Of a DNA stretch of 21,533 bases, positions 2,054-13,845 are shown piece by piece. Source of the stretch: Candidatus Hadarchaeales archaeon (GTDB lineage: Archaea > Hadarchaeota > Hadarchaeia > Hadarchaeales > WYZ-LMO6). The notes under the pieces were generated by a model. That model had not been told where the DNA came from and ran no database searches. It was given only the letters and a program-made list of their open reading frames with translations. The translations under genes and the position numbers were made by a program. The stretch's first letter is position 1. Every line of letters begins with the position of its first letter. The DNA lies in NCBI GenBank assembly GCA_038851755.1, contig JAWCKR010000012.1, forward strand, positions 1 through 21,533, read 5' to 3'.

Positions 2054-2848
2054 GTGAGGAGGAAGGGTTTCGTGCTGGGGGTCTTCTCCGCGAAGGGGGG
2101 CGTGGGAAAGACCACCACCGTCTCCAACCTGGGAGCCGCCCTGGCGCAGAAGAAGAAGGGGAAGGTGGTGATCATGGAGACGAACATGACCGCCTCCAAC
2201 CTGGGCCTCTACCTGGGGGTGGTGGACCCGCCCGTCGTGGTGCAGGACCTCCTCTACGGGAAGCTGAGGCCTGAGGAGGCCCTGGTCAAGACTCCCTACG
2301 GCCTCCATCTCCTCCCGGGGTCGGTGGCCTACACCGATGAGGTAATGGCGGTGGACTTTTCTACCATCGTGGACACCCTGAAGAAGAAGTACGAGATCAT
2401 CCTGCTGGACACCGCCCCAGGCTTCGCCCCGGAGGTCACGGCCGCCATGAGGGTGTGCGATGCGATCATGGTCTGCTGCCAGCCCCAGATCCCGGCCATA
2501 GCGGGTACCCTCCAGACCCTGAGGATGGCGGAGCGCCTGAAGGTGCCGGTGATCGGATGCGTTCTCACCAGGGTGACGGGAAGGAGGTGGGAGATACCCA
2601 TTTCGGAGATCAGGAGGACGCTGGGCTGGCCCGCCTTGGCGGAGATCCCGGAGGACGAGATGGTCCCGGAGAGCATCACCCGGGGGACTCCTGTGGTGCT
2701 CTGGGCCCCCCGCTCCCCGGCGGCGGTGGGCTACCTGAAGCTCTCGGCGCAGCTCCTCTCCCACCTGAGGCGCAGGAAGGTCAAGAAGGGGAGGAAGAAG
2801 ACCAGGCGTTCCCGGCGCCTTCCGGTGATGGTGCCCCCCTCTTCCTAG
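2054..2848 (+). CDS. minD: MinD/ParA-family ATPase (paralogue 1)
   Basis: Deviant Walker A KGGVGKTT, LLDTAPG switch II, EIPED motif; GTG start preceded by GAGGTGA SD-like sequence; basic C-terminal tail. Confidence 0.9.
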   Translation: MRRKGFVLGVFSAKGGVGKTTTVSNLGAALAQKKKGKVVIMETNMTASNLGLYLGVVDPPVVVQDLLYGKLRPEEALVKTPYGLHLLPGSVAYTDEVMAVDFSTIVDTLKKKYEIILLDTAPGFAPEVTAAMRVCDAIMVCCQPQIPAIAGTLQTLRMAERLKVPVIGCVLTRVTGRRWEIPISEIRRTLGWPALAEIPEDEMVPESITRGTPVVLWAPRSPAAVGYLKLSAQLLSHLRRRKVKKGRKKTRRSRRLPVMVPPSS

Positions 2849-3455
2849 CCACCTCCTCCACCGCCCTGGCCGGTGCCTCCCCCAGCCTGCGTTCGAGATC
2901 CTCCAGCAGCCTCCCCGCGAGGGAGCCCAGCTGCCAGAGGTCCACGTAGAGCTGGACGGGAGGTACGGTTCCCTCCCTCCCCAGCTTCAGGAGGTGCTCG
3001 TCCGGGGTCAGGACGAAGAGGTTGGGCCTCTTCCTGCGCGGGCCGTAGATCCTCCTCACCTCCTCGGGAGGGGCGTAGACGAAGACCCTGGAGTAGTCCA
3101 CCGGGCAGGAGCCGAAGAGCCTTCGGTACCCCGAGTGGGCGGTGAGGAGCCCGAGGGAGGAGAGCCTCTCCTCCATCCTGGATATGGCCTCGGCGGAAAA
3201 GGTGGTGTACACCACGTCCCCGGAGATTTCCCTGGTGGCTGCCCAGTAGAGGAGCATCCTCCTGGGATCCACCAGCCTGAAGCCCAGCGGCCTCCTCTCC
3301 ACCATCCCCATCAGCTCGAACTTGCCCACCAGGGGGTTCACCGTCCCCAGGGAGAGACCGCAGCTCCCCGCCAGCTCCTTCTGGTTGAAGAACCTCCTTC
3401 CCTTCTCGTGGTACTGGTGGAGGATTTCCCTCATCACCCTGTCTATCTTCCTCAC
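2781..3455 (-). CDS. Winged helix-turn-helix transcriptional regulator with AbiEi/DUF2186-like C-terminal domain
   Basis: N-terminal HTH (NQKELAGSCGLSLGTVNPLVGKF), DPRRMLLYWA, and C-terminal VPPVQLYVDLW resembling type IV antitoxin-like regulators; GTG start with GGTGGGG SD-like sequence. Confidence 0.75.
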   Translation of the reverse strand: MRKIDRVMREILHQYHEKGRRFFNQKELAGSCGLSLGTVNPLVGKFELMGMVERRPLGFRLVDPRRMLLYWAATREISGDVVYTTFSAEAISRMEERLSSLGLLTAHSGYRRLFGSCPVDYSRVFVYAPPEEVRRIYGPRRKRPNLFVLTPDEHLLKLGREGTVPPVQLYVDLWQLGSLAGRLLEDLERRLGEAPARAVEEVARKRGAPSPEGAGNAWSSSSPS

Positions 3456-3561: not shown

Positions 3562-6500
3562 GTGGAGGTGCGCACCGTTTCCTGCGAGAGGGCCCAGAGG
3601 AGGGATTCCCCCCCTGCGGGGAGGGGAGAGGCCCCTCTCTCCCTCCTCCTGAGCCTCCTGCTCCTCTTTTCCTCCCTTTCCCCCGTTCTGGCCGAGGATT
3701 GGTACGAGCTGGAGAGCTGGACGGGAGAAGGGGAGGGAACGGCGGGATGGTCGGCCCTGGAGAGCTGGGAGGGAGGGGTGAGGACGCTGGGGCCTCCTCA
3801 GCTGCTCTATCCCCCCCACGCTTCCTTCCTTCCCACGGCCACCCCCACCCTCGACTGGTCGGAGGTGAGCGGGGCCACCTCCTACCAGCTCCTGGTGGAC
3901 AACGATCCGAGCTTCACCTCTCCCGAGGTCAACGTCTTCCCCACCTCCAGCGAGTACGCGGTCCCTTCCCCAGGTCTTTCCGATGGCATCTGGCACTGGA
4001 GGGTCAGGGCCAAGGCCGGAGCCCTCAGCTCCCCCTGGTCGGAGGTCAGGAGCTTCACCGTGGACACGGTCTTTCCCCCCTCACCTTCCCTCTTCCTTCC
4101 CGGGGAGGGGGAGAACCTCCTCGAGGACCAGCCCCTCTTCCTCTGGTCCAGCGTCTGGGACTCCAGTGGCGTGAGCTACATCCTGGAGATAGACAACGAC
4201 CCTGACTTCGGCTCCCCCCTCTACAGGAAAGCGGGGCTGACGGAGAATCAACACAGGCTCGAGAACAAGCTCTGCGAGAACTTCTCCCCCTACCGCTGGA
4301 GGGTCTGCGCCGTGGACGGGGCAGGGAACGAGAACTGGTCCCAGCCCTACACCTTCACCCTGAAGGTCTTTCCCTCCTCCCTGGTCCAGCCCCTCTCCCC
4401 CTACTGGCAGACCTCCTCCCCCATCTCCGTGACGGTCACCGCTTCCGACAACGACGGCACGGTGGAGAACGTGGAGCTCTGGTACCGCTGGTCCCCCGAC
4501 AACTCCAGCTGGAGCTCCTGGATCCTCTACGACAACCTCTCCACCTCTCCCTACACCTTCTCCTTTGTCCCCCCCAGCGGGCAGGGGCACTACCAGTTCT
4601 ATTCCAGGGCGTGGGATGACAGGGGGAACTACGAGCAGGCCCCTCCGGGAGCGGAGGCGGAGGTGGGTTACGACAACACTCCACCCGCCACCCCCTCCCC
4701 CTCCCTTCCCGAGAACGGGGCCACCGTGGAGACCCCCACTCCCACCCTGGGATGGAGCGGAGTGGAGGACGTCTCCGGCGTCACGTACGAGCTGGAGGTG
4801 TACGAGAACCAGAACCTGAATCTCCTCTATCACTTGCTCCTCGCGGAAAACGTGTACCCGCTGGAGAACGCGCTTGAGAGCGGGAGCTACCGGTGGAGGG
4901 TGAAGGCCAGGGATGGAGCGGGATGGGAGAGCGGTTGGTCCGAGAACTACTACTTCACCGTCCGCCTCTGGTGGGGGCTGGAGTCCTGGTGGACGGGCTC
5001 GGCCGGCCAGGGTTTCTGGCGGGAGGTGGAGGGGTGGACGGGGACGGTGGTGGCACCCCATGTGTGGAAGGAACTGGAGGAATGGGGAGGGTCCTGTTCG
5101 ACCAGAGGGGGCTGGGAGAGGGTGGAGGAGTGGGTGATCTTCACGACCTCTCCGGGAGTCTGGCATGTCCTCGAGGGATACGCGGTGTTCCTTCCCTCGT
5201 CCGTCTGCTGGTGCAAGCTGGAAGGCTTTGGTAGTGCCGTAGTGACCCAGCCCCTCTGGAGGGGGGTGGAGGGCTGGCAGGGCGGTGTGGGGGGAATCAC
5301 CGGGGCCTGGAGGGAGACGGAGAGGTGGTCGGCTTCCTTCCAGGTTTTTCAGGGCTCCTGGCTTCCCTCCGACTCCTGGTCCTGTGCCTCCTCTTCCCCC
5401 GTCCCACGGCCCAGCCCGATTTCCCCCAAGGATGGGTACAACACCCAGACCTCCCCCACTCTGGAGTGGGAGAACCTCCAGCCGGCGGATAACTTCCACG
5501 TTCAGGTGGACAACGATCCCGCTTTCCCCTCCCCCAAGGCCGAGGGATGGACCTCTTCCACCTCCTTCGCTCCGGGGCCCCTGCAGGACAACCTGTACTA
5601 CTGGAGGGTGAGGATGTTCCGCTCAGGCGAGAACTCCCCCTGGTCCGAGGTCCGCACCTTCAGGGTCGACACGGTGCCCCCGGCCAAGCCCCAGCTCCTC
5701 TCGGAGAACGAGAACGATTCCACACCCCTCCTGACCTGGCAGGCCCCGCCCGAGAACTCCCTCCCGCTGGCGTACTACGTGGAGGTTTCGACCTCCAAGT
5801 ACTTCGAGCCCGAGAGCGTGGTTGAAAACGTCTGGGTCTCCTCCACCAGCTACGAGACCTCCTTCAAGGAGGACGGTATCTGGTGGTGGAGGGTCCTGGC
5901 CAGGGACAACGCAGGGAACACGGGTCTCTTCTCCGAGGCGCGCAATTTCAGGGTCGACACCCTCCCCCCACTGGTCCCGAGCCTGATCCAGCCGGAGAAC
6001 GGAGGTTGGAGGAGTTCTTCCCCCACCTTCGCATGGCAGTCCGTCGAGGAGAACTCCAAGCCCGTGCTCTACCGCTTCTTCCTGGCATACGATGAGGGCT
6101 TCAACCTGAAGGTGGAGGACCTCTGGACCGCTTCCACCTCCCTCTCCTTCCTCCTTCCGGAGGGCACCTACTGGTGGAGGGTGGGGGCAAGGGACAACGC
6201 TGGGAACTGGAGCGGGTGGTCGGGTGGAAGGTGGTTCAGGATCGATAACACTCCTCCTTCTAAGGTTACCCTACTCCACCCCGAGAACGAGGGTTGCGTT
6301 GGTCAGCAGGTGGAGCTGGAGTGGGAGAACGCGACGGACGAGGGGGCGGGGGTAAGGTGGTACGAGGCGGAGGTGGACACCGACCCTGGCTTTTCCTCCC
6401 CGGAGTGGAGGGAGAACTCCGCGGAAAACCGTTCCTCCATCCTGCTCGAGCCGGGGGAGTACTGCTGGCGCGTCAGGGCATGGGACAACGCAGGGAACCC

Positions 6501-9500
6501 GGGTGAGTGGTCGGGGGTCAGGTGGTTCAGGGTGTGCAGGTGGGAGGCGCTGGAGGGATGGTCGGTGGGCGCCGGGTACTTCCCTGGATGGTACCCGCTG
6601 GAGGGATGGGTGGTCTCTTCCTCGGCGGAAGCGGGCTGGAGGAAGCTGGAGGGTTGGTCCGCGGATGCTCTGGCGGTGGCGGGTTGGTTCTCCCTCGAGA
6701 GCTGGAGTGTTCAGGTGGGGGCCCTCAGCTGGTGGAGGCTCTCGGACTCCTGGGTGGGAAGCGCCCGGACACCCGTCGGATGGAGAGTGGTGGAGGGATG
6801 GGAAGGGGGAACGGAGGCGCTCCCGTGCTGGAGGGTACTGGAGAAGTGGCAGGGACAGCTCTCCTCTCCCCCCTGCTGGTGGGTGCTGGAGGGTTGGATG
6901 GGAGGAATGAACACGGTGGTGGGCTGGAGAGCGCTGGAAGGCTGGCAGCTGCAGTCGGTGGTCCCCTCACTCTGGAGAGCGCTGGAAGGCTGGGCGGTGG
7001 CGGTTCGCTCCTCGATGCTCTGGTACTGCCTGGAGGGCTGGACGGCCTGGTTCTCCCTCCCCTCATGCTGGCGGGTGCTGGAGGGGTGGATGGTGGCTGT
7101 CCACGCTCCGGCTTCCTGGTTGGTCCTGGACTCCTGGCGGGGAGGGATGGAGGCGCCTTCCTCCTGGTTCCTGCTGGAGGGTCGCTCGTCAACGCTGGGG
7201 GCCCCAGCTCTCTGGAGGGGGCTGGAGGGATGGTCCAGCTGGCTCGTCACTCCATCCTTCTGGGGCCATCTGGAGTCCTGGCAGGCGGGAGGCGCCGGGC
7301 CAGCCGAATGGAGGATGCTGGATGCCGGGAGCGCGGGGGTGGGGGCCCAGGCTCACTGGGTGAAGGTGGAGGAGTGGATGAGTGCCGCGAGCGCCCCTGC
7401 CGGGTGGAAGGGGCTGGAGGGGTGGTCGGTAGGGGTGGAGGGCGAGGTGAGGTGGTGCAAACTCGAAGAGGTGGAGGCCTTGGCACGCGCGGGGGCGGGC
7501 TGGAGGGAAATGGAGGGATGGGCGGGCACTCTCTCCTCCCAGCCTTCCGTTTGGAGGGAAGCCGAGGGTTGGTCGGTGGGAGTCTCCTCCCCGCCCCTCT
7601 GGAAGGCGCTGGAAGGTTGGTTGGCCCAGCTCTCCTTCCCGGCTTCCTGGCACCCCTCCGACTCCTGGTCCTGTGCCTCCTCTTCCCCCTTGCCTGCCCT
7701 GCTCCTCCTTTCCCCACCCGATCGGGAGAACACCAAGGACACCACCCCCACTCTGGAGTGGGAGAACCTCCAGCCGGCGGACAACTTCGAGCTCCAGGTG
7801 GACAACGAGCCCACCTTCTCCGAGCCCGTGACCTACTGGAAGAGAGGCCTGACGGTGACTTCCCACGAGCTGGAGAACGGGCTCCAGGACAACCTGTACT
7901 ACTGGAGGGTGAGGATGTTCCGCTCAGGCGAGAACTCCCCCTGGTCCGAGGTCCGCACCTTCAGGGTCGACACGGTGCCCCCGGCCAAGCCCGCTCCCCT
8001 GAGTCCTTTGGCCAGCGAGAACGTGGGGGACAACACCCCCACCCTTACCTGGCAGGCCCCACCGGAGAACTCCCTCCCGCTGACGTACTACGTGGAGGTC
8101 TCCCCCGACAAGGTCAACATAGCGGAGAATGCCTGGGTCTCCTCCACCAGCTACGAGACCTCCTTCAAGGAGGACGGTATCTGGTGGTGGAGGGTCCTGG
8201 CCAGGGACAACGCAGGGAACACGGGTCTCTTCTCCGACTGGAGGAGGTTCCGCGTGGACACCCTTCCTCCCTCCGCGCCCTCCCCCCTCTCCCCAGAGAA
8301 CGACAGGTGGGTGCAGACCTCCCCGCTCCTGAGCTGGAGCGCGGTGGAGGAGAACTCCCTCCCCGTTACCCACAACTTGGTGATCCTCTACTATCCCAGC
8401 CTGCTGGTGAGGGAGAACGTGTGGACGGACTCCACCTCCTTCGCCACCACGCTGGACGAGGGAAGGTACCTCTGGAGGGTGAGGGCCAGGGACAACGCGG
8501 GGAACGTGGGGCCGTGGTCGGAGGACCGTCTCTTCGGCGTGGACAATACCCCTCCCTCGGGGGCTGAGCCCCTCTCCCCCCAGAACGGTGCCTTCTTGGA
8601 CCTCGGCCAGATTCAGCTGGGGTGGACTTCTTCAATGGACGCCCCTTCCGGGGTGGATGGCTACCACCTGCAGGTGGGGGCGGGGCAGGACCTCTCTCCC
8701 ATCCTCCACGAGAACGAGGAGGTGGAAGAGAACACCTACACCTGGGTGCCTCCCTCCCCGGGGATCTACAGCTGGCGCGTGAGGGCTCTCGACCTCGCCG
8801 GGAACGCGAGTGAGTGGTCGGGGGTCAGGTGGTTCAGGGTGTGCAGGTGGGAGGCGCTGGAGGGATGGACGGCCTGGGCTGAGGCGCCAGCGGGATGGGA
8901 GGCGCTGGAGGGATGGGCTGGTCACTCGTCCTCTCCCTCGGGCTGGAGGGCACTGGAGGGATGGGGAGGCGGGATGGAGGCTCCCTTCTCGGGCTGGAGG
9001 GCACTGGAGGGATGGGGCGATGGCGTCCGCGCCGTTCAGGCCTGGTGGAGGGTGGTGGAGGAGTGGACGGTCTTCCTCCCCGCGGGTGTGCTGGCGCCCG
9101 TGCTCCTCTTCCCCGAGAACGGGAGGAACCTGAAAGAGAACGCGCCCACGCTGGGCTGGGAAGCCGTCTTCCTGGCGGACAACTACAGGCTCCAGCTCTC
9201 CTCCGAGGCGCCGGAGTGGAGGGCGGAGAACGCCAGGGTGGGGAGCGAGCCCCTGCAGCTGGTGGACGGTTCCTCCAGAAGGGGGGAGGTGGTGGGAGGG
9301 TCCCTGGAGAACACCTGGTGGGAAGACGGAGTGTGCGAGAACGTGGCGGAGAACGAGGAGGACAACACCCTCAACTGGGAGCACAGGATAGAGAACGTAC
9401 CACCGGCCTCCCTCTACGTGCTCAGGGTGAAAGGCAGGACGAGCGGGGATGAGAACGTGGGAGTCTACCTGTGGGAGACGGGTGGCTGGAGGTTCCTGGG

Positions 9501-12500
9501 CATGCTCGGGGAGGAGGAGAACTTGCTGGAGTTCTCCTTCGGCCCGCTGGAGCTGCCGAAGTACCTGGTGGACGGTGCGATCCACGTGAGGTACCTGGAG
9601 AACACCCACGACGGCGTCCGGACGGTGCTCCAGGTGGACCTGTGCGTGGTGGAGGGATGGTCCCAGGAGTTCCCCTCCACCCTCGTGGACCAGGTGCTCA
9701 CGGAGAACCATTACGCTACCTCCTCCCTCCCCGACAACCTCTACCGCTGGCGCGTGAGGGCCTCGGTGGCTGGCCTGGCGGGGATGTGGTCCGAGATCAG
9801 GACCTTCAGGGTAGACACCCTGCCCCCGCAGTCTCCACCCACCCTCCTCTCCCCCATCAACGGGGACAACGAGAACACACCCACCCCCACCCTCATCTGG
9901 TCCTCCCCCCCGGAGAACTCCTATCCGCTGGCTTTCTTCGTGCAGCTGGCCTTGGATTCCCTCTTCACGCAGCCCGTGGAGAACTCCGGCTGGATCCAGC
10001 AGAACTACTGGGTTCCCTCCCCCCTGCAGGAGAACGTCTACTACTGGAGGGTCTTCGTGAAGGACAACGCGGGCAACGAGTGTCCCGTTCCCTCGATCAC
10101 CTGGAGCTTCAGGGTGGACCTCACCCCGCCGCCGGCACCCACCCTCCTCTCGCCAGCGGACTGGGAGAACCTGAGAGCCGAGCCCCTCCTGAGGTGGGGG
10201 AGCGTGTGGGACGTCTCCGGGCCGGTCAGCTACAACGTGAGGGTGGAGTACGGTCCGGTCACCGTTTACGACGTGACGGTGCCGGAGAACGCCTGGCAGG
10301 TGCCGCCGCTCCAGGTTGACGGAATCTACAGCTGGAGGGTGAGGAGCCGGGACGGGGCGGGTAACTGGAGTCCCTTCACCTCACCGCGTTCCTTCCAGCT
10401 GGACAGGGTTCCACCCCCCGCTCCCTCGCCCCTCTCTCCACAGAACGGGGAGAACCTCAGGGAAGTGGAGTTCAGGTGGGCCCCGGTGACCGAGAACTCC
10501 CTGCCCGTGAGGTACAGGGTGCTCCTCAGCGACAACGAGGAGTTCCCCTACGAGAACGGGAGTTCAGAGTGGCTGGAGGGAGAGAACTGGAGGATGGACC
10601 TCACCCTCCCCGACGGGATCTGGTACTGGAGGGTCCAGGCCAGGGACAACGCGGGGAACGAGGGGGAGAACTCGGAGGTCCGCTGGTTCAGGCTGGACAC
10701 CCAGCCCCCCCAGGAGGTGACCCTCCTCTGGCCCGACAACGAGGCCACGCTGGAGAACTCCCAGCCCACCCTCACCTGGAGCGAGGGGGCGGACAACTCC
10801 ACCCCCCTCAGGTACAGGGTCCTGGTCTCCAGGAGGGGCGCGGTGGAGAACTACCTGGATTCGGGCTGGATTCATGAGAACTGGTGGGAGGTCCCCTCCC
10901 CCCTCCCGGACAACGACTACGAGTGGAGGGTCCAGGCCAGGGACAACGCGGGCAACGTGTTCGAGACACCCTCCTGGTGGTTCAGGGTGGAGAACGCCCC
11001 GCCCCCAGCCCCCTCACCCCTCTCCCCCGAGAACGGGAAGGTGGTGGGGGTTTCCTCGCCCCTGCTCGTCTGGCAGCCCTCCTGGGACATCTCCCAGCCC
11101 GTCCTCCACAGGGTCTGGGTCTCCACGGACGAGAACTTCGAGAACGTGGTGGCGGACTCCGACTGGAGGGACAACGACCGCTGGGAGGTCTCACCTCCGC
11201 TGGAGGACAACCTCACCTATTACTGGAGGGTCCAGGCCAGGGACAACTCCGGGAAGGAGAGTGAGAACTCCCTGACGTACCGCTTCTTCACGGACCTGCA
11301 CGCCCCTTCGGAGGTCGAGCTGCTCTCTCCGGGGAACGGGGCGGAGCTGGAGACCTTCACCCTCATGTTCAAGTGGAGGAGCGTGGAGGACAACACCCCG
11401 GTCCTCTACGAACTCGGGGTGGACAACGAGCCTGGGCTGGTTGAGCCCTTCGTCCACGCGGAGAACACCCACGAGAACTCCAGGATTGTGGGCTTCTCCC
11501 AGCCCGGAACCTACTACTGGAGGGTGAAGGCGAGGGACGGGGCCGGACACGAGAACTCCTCGGGGGTCTGGAGCTTCACCCTCAGGAAGTGGTGGTCCCT
11601 CGAGGGTTGGAGCTCGGGCGTGTCCGGTCCCCAGGAGGAGGGATGGAGGATGCTGGACGGAAGGGTGGGCTCTGCCGCCAGCTTCACCCCCGGGTGGAGG
11701 AAGGCCGAGGAGTGGAGCGTCCAGGTAAAGGGAGGGGTGGGGTGGAGGGAACTGGAGAAAAGGGTATTCGTGCTGAGACATCAGGCCTCCTGGAGGGCGC
11801 TGGAGGGAAGAAAGTTCTCCCTGAGGGCCCCGGTGCTCAGGGGATGGGCGCAGCTGGAGAACAGGGCCTTCAAGATGGTGGCCCCCCACAGATGGAACGG
11901 GCTGGACAGCTTCTCGGTGGAGGGGGTGGCGGCCGCCGGCTGGAAGTGGGTGGTGGTGGGAGGGCCCCCGTTCCTCCTCGAGTGGGCCCCGCTGGAGGGA
12001 TGGAGGGTGGGGGTGAGCGGCTGGGCTCCCCCCTCCGTCGGGGGGGTTTCCCTCGGATACTTGGAGCCCGGTGTCCCGAGCGCCACCGACCTCTCCTGGC
12101 TCGGGACCTGCGTGGCGGGACTGGAAGTGGTGGTGGGCGAGGGGGGAAGGGTGACGGTCTCGGTCTGGGAGGCCAGAGAGTTCCCAGCCTCCCTCCCGCC
12201 GGAACTCGTACCCTACCGGTACTTCCAGGTGGACCTGAAAGAACCCTCCCCCTCCCTCTCCTACGCAGTGGTGAGGGTGAGGGTGAGCCGCTCCTGGGTG
12301 AGGGAGGAAAGGATAGAGGTGAGGACCATCGGGGTGAGGAGGCTCTCCCACGGGGAAGAGCTTCAGGTGGAGGAGGTGGGAAGGGACGACAGGTACCTGT
12401 ACTTCCAGTTCAGGACGACCGAACTCGGTACCTTCCTCCTCTTCGGGGAGCGGGTGAGGGTGCCTCCTTCCCCGCCCGTGGCCCTGCTGCCAACCTTCGA

Positions 12501-13008
12501 GGTCCCCACCGCCCCCTCCTCCCTGGTCCTCCTGCTGGTCTTCTTGGGCCTGATCCTGGCGATGGCGGGCTTCGGCCTCTACCAGGTCAGCTGGTCCTTC
12601 AGGTACGGGAGGATGGTGGGCATGCTGAGGAGGACCACGGAGAGGCCCGAGCGCAGGAGGGCGGTGAGGGAGAGGGTGAGGCTCACCAAGAGGCAGAGGG
12701 AGAGCCTGGTCAGGATGTCCCTCCTCCTGCGGCGCGCGGGCCTGCCGAAGGTGGTCCCCGTGCGCAGGCGCCTGGCGAAACCGGAGAGGGTGGCGGTGGA
12801 GGCCCTGGAGAGGTTCATAAGGGAGAGGAGGAAGGAGGCCGGCCTCACTCCGCCGGAGATGGAGAAGCTCAGGAGAGAGGCCAGGAAGGAACTGGCTTCC
12901 TGGAAGACCCTGGAGGAGGTGGTGGAGCGCAAGAGGAAGGAAGTGCTGAGGCGCAGGAAGGTCAGAGGCTCTTCAGGCGCTCGGAGAGGGAAGAAGCGAG
13001 CTTCTTGA
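3562..13008 (+). CDS. Giant (3148 aa) membrane-anchored cell-surface protein: FN3/Ig-like repeats, Trp-rich 16-aa repeats, PGF-pre-PGF-like domain, TM helix, basic cytoplasmic tail
   Basis: Uninterrupted 9.4-kb ORF; signal peptide LSLLLSLLLLFSSLSPVLA|ED; about 18 repeats of ~100 aa (PxLLSPxNG..TPTLxW..YYWRVRARDNAGN..WSEVRxFxVDTxPP); TM LVLLLVFLGLILAMAGFGLY at about 12523-12590. Confidence 0.93.
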   Translation: MEVRTVSCERAQRRDSPPAGRGEAPLSLLLSLLLLFSSLSPVLAEDWYELESWTGEGEGTAGWSALESWEGGVRTLGPPQLLYPPHASFLPTATPTLDWSEVSGATSYQLLVDNDPSFTSPEVNVFPTSSEYAVPSPGLSDGIWHWRVRAKAGALSSPWSEVRSFTVDTVFPPSPSLFLPGEGENLLEDQPLFLWSSVWDSSGVSYILEIDNDPDFGSPLYRKAGLTENQHRLENKLCENFSPYRWRVCAVDGAGNENWSQPYTFTLKVFPSSLVQPLSPYWQTSSPISVTVTASDNDGTVENVELWYRWSPDNSSWSSWILYDNLSTSPYTFSFVPPSGQGHYQFYSRAWDDRGNYEQAPPGAEAEVGYDNTPPATPSPSLPENGATVETPTPTLGWSGVEDVSGVTYELEVYENQNLNLLYHLLLAENVYPLENALESGSYRWRVKARDGAGWESGWSENYYFTVRLWWGLESWWTGSAGQGFWREVEGWTGTVVAPHVWKELEEWGGSCSTRGGWERVEEWVIFTTSPGVWHVLEGYAVFLPSSVCWCKLEGFGSAVVTQPLWRGVEGWQGGVGGITGAWRETERWSASFQVFQGSWLPSDSWSCASSSPVPRPSPISPKDGYNTQTSPTLEWENLQPADNFHVQVDNDPAFPSPKAEGWTSSTSFAPGPLQDNLYYWRVRMFRSGENSPWSEVRTFRVDTVPPAKPQLLSENENDSTPLLTWQAPPENSLPLAYYVEVSTSKYFEPESVVENVWVSSTSYETSFKEDGIWWWRVLARDNAGNTGLFSEARNFRVDTLPPLVPSLIQPENGGWRSSSPTFAWQSVEENSKPVLYRFFLAYDEGFNLKVEDLWTASTSLSFLLPEGTYWWRVGARDNAGNWSGWSGGRWFRIDNTPPSKVTLLHPENEGCVGQQVELEWENATDEGAGVRWYEAEVDTDPGFSSPEWRENSAENRSSILLEPGEYCWRVRAWDNAGNPGEWSGVRWFRVCRWEALEGWSVGAGYFPGWYPLEGWVVSSSAEAGWRKLEGWSADALAVAGWFSLESWSVQVGALSWWRLSDSWVGSARTPVGWRVVEGWEGGTEALPCWRVLEKWQGQLSSPPCWWVLEGWMGGMNTVVGWRALEGWQLQSVVPSLWRALEGWAVAVRSSMLWYCLEGWTAWFSLPSCWRVLEGWMVAVHAPASWLVLDSWRGGMEAPSSWFLLEGRSSTLGAPALWRGLEGWSSWLVTPSFWGHLESWQAGGAGPAEWRMLDAGSAGVGAQAHWVKVEEWMSAASAPAGWKGLEGWSVGVEGEVRWCKLEEVEALARAGAGWREMEGWAGTLSSQPSVWREAEGWSVGVSSPPLWKALEGWLAQLSFPASWHPSDSWSCASSSPLPALLLLSPPDRENTKDTTPTLEWENLQPADNFELQVDNEPTFSEPVTYWKRGLTVTSHELENGLQDNLYYWRVRMFRSGENSPWSEVRTFRVDTVPPAKPAPLSPLASENVGDNTPTLTWQAPPENSLPLTYYVEVSPDKVNIAENAWVSSTSYETSFKEDGIWWWRVLARDNAGNTGLFSDWRRFRVDTLPPSAPSPLSPENDRWVQTSPLLSWSAVEENSLPVTHNLVILYYPSLLVRENVWTDSTSFATTLDEGRYLWRVRARDNAGNVGPWSEDRLFGVDNTPPSGAEPLSPQNGAFLDLGQIQLGWTSSMDAPSGVDGYHLQVGAGQDLSPILHENEEVEENTYTWVPPSPGIYSWRVRALDLAGNASEWSGVRWFRVCRWEALEGWTAWAEAPAGWEALEGWAGHSSSPSGWRALEGWGGGMEAPFSGWRALEGWGDGVRAVQAWWRVVEEWTVFLPAGVLAPVLLFPENGRNLKENAPTLGWEAVFLADNYRLQLSSEAPEWRAENARVGSEPLQLVDGSSRRGEVVGGSLENTWWEDGVCENVAENEEDNTLNWEHRIENVPPASLYVLRVKGRTSGDENVGVYLWETGGWRFLGMLGEEENLLEFSFGPLELPKYLVDGAIHVRYLENTHDGVRTVLQVDLCVVEGWSQEFPSTLVDQVLTENHYATSSLPDNLYRWRVRASVAGLAGMWSEIRTFRVDTLPPQSPPTLLSPINGDNENTPTPTLIWSSPPENSYPLAFFVQLALDSLFTQPVENSGWIQQNYWVPSPLQENVYYWRVFVKDNAGNECPVPSITWSFRVDLTPPPAPTLLSPADWENLRAEPLLRWGSVWDVSGPVSYNVRVEYGPVTVYDVTVPENAWQVPPLQVDGIYSWRVRSRDGAGNWSPFTSPRSFQLDRVPPPAPSPLSPQNGENLREVEFRWAPVTENSLPVRYRVLLSDNEEFPYENGSSEWLEGENWRMDLTLPDGIWYWRVQARDNAGNEGENSEVRWFRLDTQPPQEVTLLWPDNEATLENSQPTLTWSEGADNSTPLRYRVLVSRRGAVENYLDSGWIHENWWEVPSPLPDNDYEWRVQARDNAGNVFETPSWWFRVENAPPPAPSPLSPENGKVVGVSSPLLVWQPSWDISQPVLHRVWVSTDENFENVVADSDWRDNDRWEVSPPLEDNLTYYWRVQARDNSGKESENSLTYRFFTDLHAPSEVELLSPGNGAELETFTLMFKWRSVEDNTPVLYELGVDNEPGLVEPFVHAENTHENSRIVGFSQPGTYYWRVKARDGAGHENSSGVWSFTLRKWWSLEGWSSGVSGPQEEGWRMLDGRVGSAASFTPGWRKAEEWSVQVKGGVGWRELEKRVFVLRHQASWRALEGRKFSLRAPVLRGWAQLENRAFKMVAPHRWNGLDSFSVEGVAAAGWKWVVVGGPPFLLEWAPLEGWRVGVSGWAPPSVGGVSLGYLEPGVPSATDLSWLGTCVAGLEVVVGEGGRVTVSVWEAREFPASLPPELVPYRYFQVDLKEPSPSLSYAVVRVRVSRSWVREERIEVRTIGVRRLSHGEELQVEEVGRDDRYLYFQFRTTELGTFLLFGERVRVPPSPPVALLPTFEVPTAPSSLVLLLVFLGLILAMAGFGLYQVSWSFRYGRMVGMLRRTTERPERRRAVRERVRLTKRQRESLVRMSLLLRRAGLPKVVPVRRRLAKPERVAVEALERFIRERRKEAGLTPPEMEKLRREARKELASWKTLEEVVERKRKEVLRRRKVRGSSGARRGKKRAS
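3700..3783 (+). repeat. Trp-repeat tract 1 (2 copies) at the mature N-terminus
   Basis: WYELESW and WSALESW, 16 aa apart, right after the predicted signal cleavage site. Confidence 0.75.
4969..5400 (+). repeat. Trp-repeat tract 2 (9 copies)
   Basis: WWGLESW, WREVEGW, WKELEEW, WERVEEW, WHVLEGY, WCKLEGF, WRGVEGW, WRETERW, WLPSDSW at 16-17 aa spacing. Confidence 0.85.
5365..6561 (+). repeat. Copy A of ~1.2-kb intragenic duplication (four FN3 domains plus tract borders)
   Basis: Identical blocks with copy B: 5365-5400=7654-7689, 5453-5489=7745-7781, 5584-5691=7885-7992, 5832-5936=8133-8237, 6503-6561=8810-8868. Confidence 0.9.
6541..7689 (+). repeat. Trp-repeat tract 3 (24 copies, 48-bp period)
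   Basis: First W of copy 1 (6541) to first W of copy 24 (7648) spans 369 codons = 23x16+1; consensus WxxLEGW plus 9 variable residues. Confidence 0.92.
7654..8868 (+). repeat. Copy B of ~1.2-kb intragenic duplication
   Basis: Same identical blocks as copy A at offsets of 2289-2307 bp. Confidence 0.9.
8848..9080 (+). repeat. Trp-repeat tract 4 (5 copies)
   Basis: WEALEGW x2, WRALEGW x2, WRVVEEW; neighbouring copies share identical 21-30 bp DNA stretches. Confidence 0.85.
11590..12025 (+). repeat. Trp-repeat tract 5 (about 8 more degenerate copies)
   Basis: WWSLEGW, WRMLDGR, WRKAEEW, WRELEKR, WRALEGR, WAQLENR, WNGLDSF, WAPLEGW. Confidence 0.8.
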
Positions 13009-13690
13009 GTTCCCTGGCGGCCTTCGACCTGGGGCGGTACTTCACGACCGGGATGCCAGCTGCCGTGGACTCCCTCACCCTCTTGTCCTCGGGGATCACC
13101 CCTATCACAGGCCAGCCGAGGGCCTCCCTTATCTCCCCCAGCGAGAGCTCGAAGGGCTCCCCTGCCACCCGGTTCACCACCACCCCCAGGATGGGTACCC
13201 TGTACTTTTCCGCGGCCCTGAAGGTCTTGAGGGTGCTGGCGATGGTGGGGACGTAGGGGTTGGTCACGATGATCATCCCCGTGCAGGCCTTCAGGGCGGC
13301 CACCACCTCGCTCCCTATCCCCGGGGCGGAGTCCAGCAGGATCATCTCGTACTCCTTCTTGAGGGGGGAGAGGAGTTCCCTGAGGTCCACCGGGCGGACC
13401 TCGTCCTCGTAGGCTATGGAGCCCAGCACCATGGGCACCCCCTGGATGTTCAGAACGGCTTCCTCGATGGGCAGGTCGGAGGAGATCACGTCGTGCACCG
13501 TGGCCTTGGGTGTCAGTTCCCCGAAGTGCAGGCCCAGGTTGGGGGCCCCCAGGTTGGCGTCGAAGGCAAGGACCTTCCTCTTCAGGTCCACCAGGCTGGA
13601 GGCCAGGTTGGAGACCACCGTGGTCTTTCCCACCCCTCCCTTGCAGGAGAAGACCCCTATCACCTTGGCCTCCCTGGGCCTGATCTCCAT
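12962..13690 (-). CDS. minD: MinD/ParA-family ATPase (paralogue 2)
   Basis: KGGVGKTT, FDANLGAPNL, LLDSAPG, VVVNRV, VIPED. ATG at 13690 has a GGAG SD; an in-frame GTG at 13759 (31 nt after the TATA box) is an alternative leaderless start. The ORF-track start at 13816 lies upstream of the TATA box and is unlikely. Confidence 0.9.
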   Translation of the reverse strand: MEIRPREAKVIGVFSCKGGVGKTTVVSNLASSLVDLKRKVLAFDANLGAPNLGLHFGELTPKATVHDVISSDLPIEEAVLNIQGVPMVLGSIAYEDEVRPVDLRELLSPLKKEYEMILLDSAPGIGSEVVAALKACTGMIIVTNPYVPTIASTLKTFRAAEKYRVPILGVVVNRVAGEPFELSLGEIREALGWPVIGVIPEDKRVRESTAAGIPVVKYRPRSKAARELKKLASSLSERLKSL

Positions 13691-13779
13691 CCCCCTCTCC
13701 TTCCTGGGGGGTTTGAGGAGGGTGGGGAGCTTTTTTCCCCTCTTGGGCCTTGCGGGCACATTCTCCCTTTTCCCCGGAA

Positions 13780-13790
13780 CTAAATATAAG
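13780..13790 (-). promoter_or_regulatory. TATA box for minD-like gene 2
   Basis: CTTATATTTAG on the minus strand in the divergent intergenic region. Confidence 0.6.
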
Positions 13791-13845
13791 GTCGGCTCGG
13801 GGATTGCACCGGCCACCGGTCCTGCGCCACCCCCACGGCCCTCCC

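Follow-up and report, generated by a model that had tools for sequence, protein, structure and literature searches.

A giant gene with five tracts of a tryptophan-rich repeat

We analysed a stretch of DNA of 21,533 nucleotides from a Candidatus Hadarchaeales archaeon (contig JAWCKR010000012.1, positions 1-21,533), hereafter called the window. It is contig C12 of a genome (G000; assembly GCA_038851755.1) of 1.25 Mb in 26 contigs that is 93% complete and has a G+C content of ~65%. The plus strand of the window harbours a giant gene (positions 3562-13008, an open frame with a putative GTG start, stop codon included) coding for a type I surface protein of 3148 residues, in which tandem arrays of a 16-residue, Trp-containing repeat alternate with blocks of immunoglobulin (Ig)-like domains. 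We called this repeat W16, and we describe here its sequence, its conservation and its distribution, together with the role that it might play in the protein.

The features of the protein are all encoded on the plus strand. A putative signal peptide with a basic N-terminus and a hydrophobic segment was recognized by eye in the translation (residues 1-44, ...LLLSLLLLFSSLSPVLA; 3562-3693), and W16 tract 1, of two copies (residues 44-75; 3691-3786), begins directly after its last residues, ...PVLA. Like those of tracts 2 to 4, the limits of this tract were read from the motif and its register. It is followed by Ig- or fibronectin type III (FN3)-like block 1 (residues 76-466; 3787-4959), which was identified by Pfam matches to part of DUF4962, to Big_7 and to Ig_J-like domains as well as by WRV..D.AG motifs. 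Tract 2, with nine copies and the terminal sequence SWLPSDSWSCASSSP (residues 467-612; 4960-5397), precedes Ig-like block 2 (residues 613-990; 5398-6531), in which the best stretch for Pfam Ig_Rha78A_N spans residues 914-991 and an NCBIfam OmpL47-type domain spans residues 923-981. Tract 3 has 24 copies (residues 991-1374; 6532-7683). It is followed by Ig-like block 3 (residues 1375-1759; 7684-8838), an internal duplicate of block 2 as judged from stretches repeated in the translation, and then by tract 4, of five copies (residues 1760-1841; 8839-9084). The central block (residues 1842-2673; 9085-11580) comprises a ~150-residue domain without a family match and then about seven Ig-like domains (Pfam Big_13, Big_3_2 and Big_10; WRV motifs). 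Tract 5, delimited by its register, has eight to nine degenerate copies (residues 2674 to ~2825; 11581-12036). The C-terminal part of the protein harbours a membrane-proximal PGF_pre_PGF-like domain (TIGR04213; residues 2885-2959; 12214-12438), a transmembrane (TM) helix found with a crude hydrophobic-window scan (about residues 2983-3009; 12508-12588) and, as read from the translation, an Arg/Lys/Glu-rich cytoplasmic tail of ~139 residues (12589-13005).

In the blocks between the tracts, Ig_Rha78A_N (PF25788) matched 10 stretches with an E-value of 5e-40 (136.4 bits, for a gathering score of 27.4), and Big_13 (PF19077) matched with an E-value of 8.6e-35 (119.7 bits, for a gathering score of 27). 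The TIGR04213 model, whose cut-off is 28 bits, scored 31.7 bits on the C-terminal 352 residues and 27.9 bits on the whole protein. In the tracts that follow Ig-like blocks, the first repeat comes immediately behind the final strand of an Ig-like domain, as seen at the start of tract 3, where the two are joined without a linker (...RWFRV-CRWEALEGW).

Motif, register and composition of the W16 repeat

A preliminary description of this sequence had reported about 48 copies of the repeat in five tracts, with a strict period and in alternation with FN3-type blocks, and our counts bear this out. Written out in full, the unit of the tracts is W-x2-[LV]-[ED]-x-W-x9. Its core pattern W...[ED].W is found at 40 places in the protein, whereas 1000 shuffled versions yielded 1.8 matches on average and eight at most. 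Successive matches are 16 residues apart in 22 of the 39 intervals; the others include a few of 17 and 32 residues at places where one copy is degenerate. In tract 3, the distance from W994 to W1363 is 369 residues for 23 intervals. A hidden Markov model (HMM) of the family gave 51 envelopes in the window protein and two in its shuffled version; with the seed HMM, a few of the weakest envelopes fall inside Ig-like domains.

We parsed 45 units by hand, all of which have Trp at position 4 and an acidic residue at position 8, while Trp at position 10 is present in 37 and Leu at position 7 in 32. The logo of 2405 unique units of the family reads P1 A2 x W4 x x [IVL]7 E8 [ST]9 W10 [TS]11 G12 T13 [VI]14 x [ATS]16. 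The residues at positions 1 (Pro), 2 (Ala), 12 (Gly), 13 (Thr), 14 (Val or Ile) and 16 (Ala, Thr or Ser) are thus moderately conserved family-wide, and conservation alternates along the unit, with positions 2, 4, 8, 10, 12, 14 and 16 conserved and positions 3, 5 and 15 variable. Most units of the family set have 16 residues (1078 units), with 246 of 17, 62 of 18 and 36 of 15 residues, and these changes in length all fall after position 14 and ahead of the following W4. The alternating conservation, the fixed Gly and Pro residues and the single site that tolerates insertions and deletions fit a regular β structure, whether a solenoid or a ribbon of hairpins.

The composition of the tracts is biased towards Gly (13.7%), Ser (10.7%) and Trp (12.3%). 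None of the 14 N-glycosylation sequons lies within the 796 tract residues, and Asn makes up 0.4% of the tracts versus 6.6% of the rest of the protein.

Searches for related families and structures

The statement that the repeat matches no described family held in all our searches. No Pfam model matched the tracts over its cut-off (whole protein searched at E<=1, the five tracts at E<=10), and the profiles of choline-binding (PF01473), WD40, MORN, pentapeptide, RTX, hexapeptide, curlin and ice-nucleation protein (PF00818) repeats gave no match in these searches. The sub-threshold matches on the tracts correspond to unrelated families, such as DUF3499 (23.9 bits for a cut-off of 25) and Cuticle_2. 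NCBIfam similarly yielded no match on the tracts. Among the chains of the Protein Data Bank (PDB), phmmer found none at E<=10, and a profile built on 69 windows had a hyaluronate lyase as its best match (E-value 0.071). The neighbours in the ESM Atlas are at chance level (scores 0.81 and 0.87). A literature search of listings and abstracts found no description of the repeat, and the supplements of Hadarchaeota genome papers might mention such proteins. The repeats of archaeal surface proteins dealt with in the available part of one study measure 42-54 residues, with none of 16 (PMC2447325). W16 is an undescribed repeat family within a known general kind, that of the short β-repeats from which surface proteins make rods. 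We define the family by a W-x2-[LIVM]-[ED]-x-W core, a period of 16-17 residues, an arrangement in tandem tracts and a location in secreted proteins with a TM anchor, all of which apply to the window protein.

Conservation of copy number and selection

A congeneric, better assembled genome (G002) holds an orthologue of 3170 residues, which is 77.5% identical to the window protein overall. Identity is 79-91% in the Ig blocks, 52% in tract 3 and 55% in tract 5. Despite the 52% identity, tract 3 aligns without a single gap between the two proteins, and the copy numbers of tracts 2, 3 and 4 (9, 24 and 5) are equal in both. The same holds for a giant paralogue encoded on contig C15 of G000 and its own orthologue, both of which have tracts of 27, 19, 21 and 15 copies. 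In addition, contigs from four hot-spring metagenome runs of two studies span tract 3 with few substitutions and no gaps. These data agree with the earlier proposal that length is under selection. Tandem Repeats Finder (TRF) detected no 48-nt DNA repeat, which indicates that the units are old and have diverged at the DNA level; a recent expansion of the tracts at the DNA level is ruled out by this result.

We calculated synonymous (dS) and nonsynonymous (dN) distances to the G002 orthologue with the Nei-Gojobori method. Tract 3 has a dS of 0.93, a dN of 0.35 and a dN/dS of 0.38, the last of which amounts to 0.12 at positions 4, 7, 8 and 10 and to 0.48 elsewhere. The Ig blocks have a dS of 0.25-0.49 and a dN/dS of 0.19-0.31, and across all regions of the protein dN/dS ranges from 0.13 to 0.49. 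There is thus purifying selection throughout the protein, with the copy number held fixed. Constraint is strongest on the two Trp and the acidic residue, as the preliminary description had it, and the logo, the orthologue alignment and the low dN/dS at the motif positions concur on this. Its corollary that the rest of the unit escapes selection has to be abandoned, given the moderately conserved spacer positions and the dN/dS of ~0.48 at the non-motif positions of tract 3. The latter value does not support positive selection on the spacers either.

The synonymous distances to G002 form a mosaic along the gene, with a dS of 0.22-0.27 in some blocks, whereas tract 3 and the membrane-proximal domain reach 0.91-0.93; this suggests recombination between diverged alleles. 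As the excess divergence of tract 3 is partly synonymous, it speaks for a mosaic history and not for positive selection.

In several runs, the public contigs end precisely at the limits of tract 3 (6532 and 7683), whose junction sequences, VCRWEALEGW and SDSWSCASSSP, are present in duplicate in the gene. Assembly joints also fall in Ig-like block 3. With break points at duplicated junctions, many metagenome-assembled genomes (MAGs) probably contain the giant genes of this family in fragmented form.

Distribution of the family and paralogues

A phmmer search with tract 3 against 1.84 billion representative proteins returned 120 proteins at E<=1e-3, including 77 at E<=1e-10 and 35 at E<=1e-30. 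Nearly all of the 120 carry the motif with a period of 16, a minority with a period of 17. The named members come almost all from Hadesarchaea or Hadarchaeales MAGs, with the addition of two partial proteins labelled Thorarchaeota. They are annotated as 'hypothetical' or 'PGF-pre-PGF domain-containing', and in single cases as 'predicted phage tail protein' or 'DUF87 domain-containing'. The protein query matched in 25 of 41 related genomes. The profile matched in 34 of the 66 genomes of the phylum, many of which are incomplete; all 34 belong to one order, and the sole genome of another order had no match. A locus search with a single protein query retrieved only three Hadarchaeota loci. The W16 family is restricted to one lineage.

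The two partial proteins from MAGs labelled Thorarchaeota (P0057 and P0119) have a 17-residue variant of the repeat (VSWYLIESWSGTVKSRS) and, after the tract, the domain that the window protein has at residues ~1880-1940. Their presence in these MAGs reflects either gene transfer or a binning error. Three other proteins (P0036, P0044 and P0056) contain distant 16-residue variants in which the acidic residue is replaced or shifted. Each of their units has one or two N-x-S/T sequons (e.g. NTSQWNTISSWTGEVS), while the tracts of the window protein have none.

The G000 genome codes for two more proteins of the family. The C15 paralogue (G000:C15:4347-21107, minus strand) has 5587 residues, at least eight tracts and 138 HMM envelopes, compared with one after shuffling. 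A 1159-residue protein encoded on contig C3 has four envelopes (none after shuffling) and comprises, in this order, a right-handed β-helix, an FN3-like domain, four W16 units, an Ig-like domain and a TM helix. The two giant W16 genes, of 9.4 and 16.8 kb, add up to 26.2 kb, ~2% of the genome. Before its first tract, the C15 paralogue also harbours about five copies of a ~170-residue module (residues ~480-1330, '...SFFNP.GSGRTAV...VPKKH.G..DTAM...').

In four relatives of ~1100 residues (P0031, P0032, P0035 and P0059), a W16 tract is found between the head and a C-terminal TM helix, with the end of the tract ~55-125 residues away from the helix in the last three. The heads of three of the four have Pfam matches, namely to CBM96, to a GH43-like domain with DUF2341, and to LVIVD with DUF2341; that of P0035 has no Pfam match.

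A possible stalk or spacer function

The location of the tracts between head domains and membrane anchor in these relatives and in the C3 protein of G000 argues for a stalk or spacer role. With moderate confidence, we therefore propose that the W16 tracts are modular, length-critical, unglycosylated all-β stalks or spacers of Hadarchaeales membrane-anchored surface proteins. Each tract would fold as one cooperative, unglycosylated, all-β rod whose length would be set by the copy number, and the rods would serve as stiff stalk or spacer segments; their rigidity and spacer function are what we infer from the data above. In the ~1100-residue proteins, the rods would hold the head domains off the membrane, and in the giant proteins they would separate strings of Ig-like beads.

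As for the fold of these rods, a β-solenoid with one repeat per coil, stacked Trp residues, an acidic ladder and a rise of ~0.48 nm per repeat is a tentative model, about which we have more doubt than conviction. The best AlphaFold2 (AF2) model of tract 3, computed with an alignment of 39 rows, has a predicted local distance difference test (pLDDT) score of 62.6 and is made of strands without any helix. Its strands span positions 2-14, with breaks at positions 15-1 and often also at 5-6. Most of its 26 weak Foldseek matches are parallel β-solenoids or β-helices by their descriptions, including CsgA, tailspikes and 12 GlmU-type chains, some of which we take to have the parallel β-solenoid fold. 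The standard strand spacing is 0.48 nm per solenoid rung. If the tracts were solenoids with this rise, tracts 1 to 5 would be about 1, 4.3, 11.5, 2.4 and 4 nm long. Thus, for the β-solenoid put forward in the preliminary description, the all-strand model and its parallel neighbours are favourable; its low pLDDT, the known bias of the predictor and the lack of significance of the Foldseek matches are not. We found nothing in this analysis in favour of the scaffoldin-like docking array suggested at the same time.

A number of observations weigh against the proposed all-β rod or its solenoid version. AF2 returned four further models of tract 3, with pLDDT scores of 50, 39, 33 and 30, and a prediction for eight repeats with an alignment of 69 rows reached 30. 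When two copies of 12 repeats were co-folded, ESMFold2 had low confidence in the fold of the chain itself; the interface scores of this prediction (ipSAE 0.00 and 0.00, without controls) speak neither for nor against self-association. The Foldseek search of the best model against the PDB gave nothing significant (best E-value 0.37, TM-scores 0.10-0.23). According to the part of a recent study available to us, AF2 over-predicts β-solenoids for repeat sequences, and a stacked, uncompensated Glu ladder is the kind of feature called implausible there (PMC11795689). Covariation between repeats, analysed by mutual information, reduced-alphabet z-scores and mean-field direct coupling analysis, at first revealed couplings of two kinds, in-register and 8-16. 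None of these survived a permutation of the residues inside each protein, and they therefore reflect differences between proteins rather than contacts, so that covariation had to be discarded as contact evidence. Two copies, as in tract 1, are not enough for a solenoid that is stable by itself. The two Trp and the Glu are conserved beyond the needs of a plain core, which would also fit a binding function. Finally, no RNA dataset is listed among the public runs that contain the gene, and two runs declared as 'metatranscriptomic' are flagged as probably DNA.

Other structures and functions can be considered. In one of them, the tracts form a ribbon resembling Trp-zipper β-hairpins or a meander, with repeats or half repeats running antiparallel and the Trp face covered by a sheet of the same chain or of a neighbour, so that a lateral β-zipper or an oligomeric stalk would result. 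The 13-residue strands and three-residue turns of the AF2 model (positions 2-14 and 15-1) are as compatible with a meander as with a solenoid, there is near symmetry in the motif W4-x2-phi7-x2-W10, and the two copies of tract 1 could form a single hairpin. The long charged cytoplasmic tail could, moreover, aid chain association. If the sheet had a single layer, with two Trp in each strand, it would, however, need a partner, no antiparallel coupling (i+j = constant) came out of any of the covariation analyses, whose power is low, and the weak Foldseek neighbours are parallel solenoids rather than meanders; altogether, such a ribbon appears unlikely. The sequence conservation also prompts the idea of a binding surface, in which the W...E.W triads would line up in a long stripe that holds a polymer, be it a glycan of the cell's own envelope, an extracellular polysaccharide or the surface of another cell. 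Aromatic-rich cell-wall-binding and choline-binding repeats bind polymers in such a fashion, and a Trp and a carboxylate are a common sugar-binding pair. W4, E/D8 and W10 are far more conserved than the other positions, and several relatives have carbohydrate-active heads (CBM96, GH43-like). Nevertheless, the Pfam searches revealed no match to any binding-repeat family, and both the exact conservation of copy numbers and the proximity to the membrane anchor suit a spacer better, so that we regard a binding stripe as rather improbable.

The low confidence of two independent predictors and the abundance of Gly, Ser and Trp in the tracts could alternatively be the mark of a non-globular, 'sticky' or elastic low-complexity linker, whose Trp residues would loosely contact membranes, minerals or proteins. 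However, disordered linkers seldom display an exact 16-residue register, the absence of insertions and deletions at 52% identity or equal copy numbers. The β-strand-like alternation of conservation and the restriction of insertions and deletions to one site per unit do not suit such a linker either, which makes it the least credible of these explanations. The stalk or spacer rod can also be extended into a bolder scheme. In it, W16 would be a new β-solenoid with two Trp ladders and an acidic ladder, the rods would stick side by side through exposed Trp and Glu stripes, and two or three giant W16 proteins would weave an outer envelope lattice for which the copy numbers serve as thickness rulers. 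We consider this scheme quite improbable as a whole.

Comparison with known repeat systems

The closest analogues of W16 in form are the repeats of ice-nucleation proteins (INPs; InaZ, PbINP; PF00818), which have the same strict 16-residue period and form long tandem arrays. In the portion of the literature on INPs that we consulted, the models assign one coil of a β-solenoid to each repeat, with a conserved Tyr ladder, and the number of coils per sub-domain is conserved (PMC10418271). The INP consensus given in the same source, AGYGSTQTAGEDSSLT with its water-ordering TxT and SxT motifs (PMC10418271), has nothing in common with the W16 consensus PAxWxx[IVL]E[ST]W[TS]GT[VI]xA. Furthermore, INPs belong to Gram-negative bacteria and have a single array without interruptions, whereas the W16 protein is archaeal and TM-anchored, with five tracts interleaved with Ig-like domains.

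Curli CsgA and the GlmU-type left-handed β-helices share with the proposed W16 fold a repetitive parallel β architecture, and they are the top, statistically insignificant, Foldseek neighbours of the best model. These CsgA and hexapeptide solenoids differ from W16 in that they have no Trp motif, and the window protein has no Pfam match to either family. Their periods are ~20 residues for CsgA and 6 or 18 for the hexapeptide solenoids, compared with 16 for W16. The choline- or cell-wall-binding repeats (CW_binding_1, PF01473) resemble W16 in being short, aromatic-rich and part of surface proteins. Choline-binding repeats form a superhelical stack of β-hairpins that binds a polymer, with a period of ~20 residues. 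PF01473 repeats are cell-wall anchors found at the termini of bacterial proteins, in contrast with W16 tracts, which are internal, putative stalk segments near a TM anchor. With respect to the proposed role, W16 is comparable to the region II extender of MpAFP from Marinomonas primoryensis, a long rigid segment that projects other domains outward, as described in the sections of that study at our disposal (PMC4083281). The MpAFP extenders are, according to the same sections, Ig-like domains of ~104 residues stiffened by Ca2+ (PMC4083281), whereas in the W16 protein Ig-like domains make up the beads, with the 16-residue repeat as the new element between them.

Because the two giant W16 genes take up ~2% of the G000 genome, the repeat represents a major structural investment there. 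Hadarchaeales are widespread in hot springs and in the subsurface and are almost entirely uncultured, and we know of no description of their cell envelope. W16 offers a clean natural test of how repeat number sets physical length, and it is a challenge for structure predictors, whose results on it are discordant or of no use. Protein engineers might employ it as a modular, heat-stable rod. With the 2405 units as the basis of a Pfam or NCBIfam model, >100 'hypothetical' giant proteins could be annotated as stalk-bearing surface proteins.

Other domains of the protein and neighbouring genes

The ~150-residue domain of the central block (window positions 9200-9650, residues ~1880-2030) splits the array of Ig-like domains and has no match in Pfam or NCBIfam. 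A stretch that resembles it is also found in the C15 protein (residues ~1335-1440) and in the Thorarchaeota-labelled proteins.

The cytoplasmic tail of the window protein is unusually long, and it is 79% identical in the G002 orthologue; the shorter relatives have short basic stubs instead. We considered anchoring by the PGF-CTERM/archaeosortase A system and rejected it, as no PGF-CTERM model matched at E<=1 and the tail, with its ~139 residues, is not a short basic stub. No archaeosortase A (TIGR04125) was detected in the 93% complete G000 genome, and the Haloferax and Methanosarcina controls were positive.

Divergently oriented and upstream of the giant gene is a gene for a Crp-like helix-turn-helix (HTH) protein (2781-3455, minus strand). 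A paralogue with 46% identity to it is encoded upstream of the giant gene of C15 (G000:C15:21678-22292), and both arrangements recur in G002. The Crp-like HTH proteins may be dedicated regulators. The giant gene of the window lies between two genes for MinD/ParA-type ATPases (2054-2848, plus strand; 12962-13816, minus strand), whose products share 45% identity, and upstream are found genes for a coiled-coil protein and for a fragment of a DUF87/TraG-like ATPase. The whole gene order is kept in G002. In that genome, three giant W16 frames of 3170, 7944 and 5638 residues lie within ~60 kb of a single contig (G002:C1:78000-137000), and contigs C12 and C15 of G000 may therefore be neighbours.

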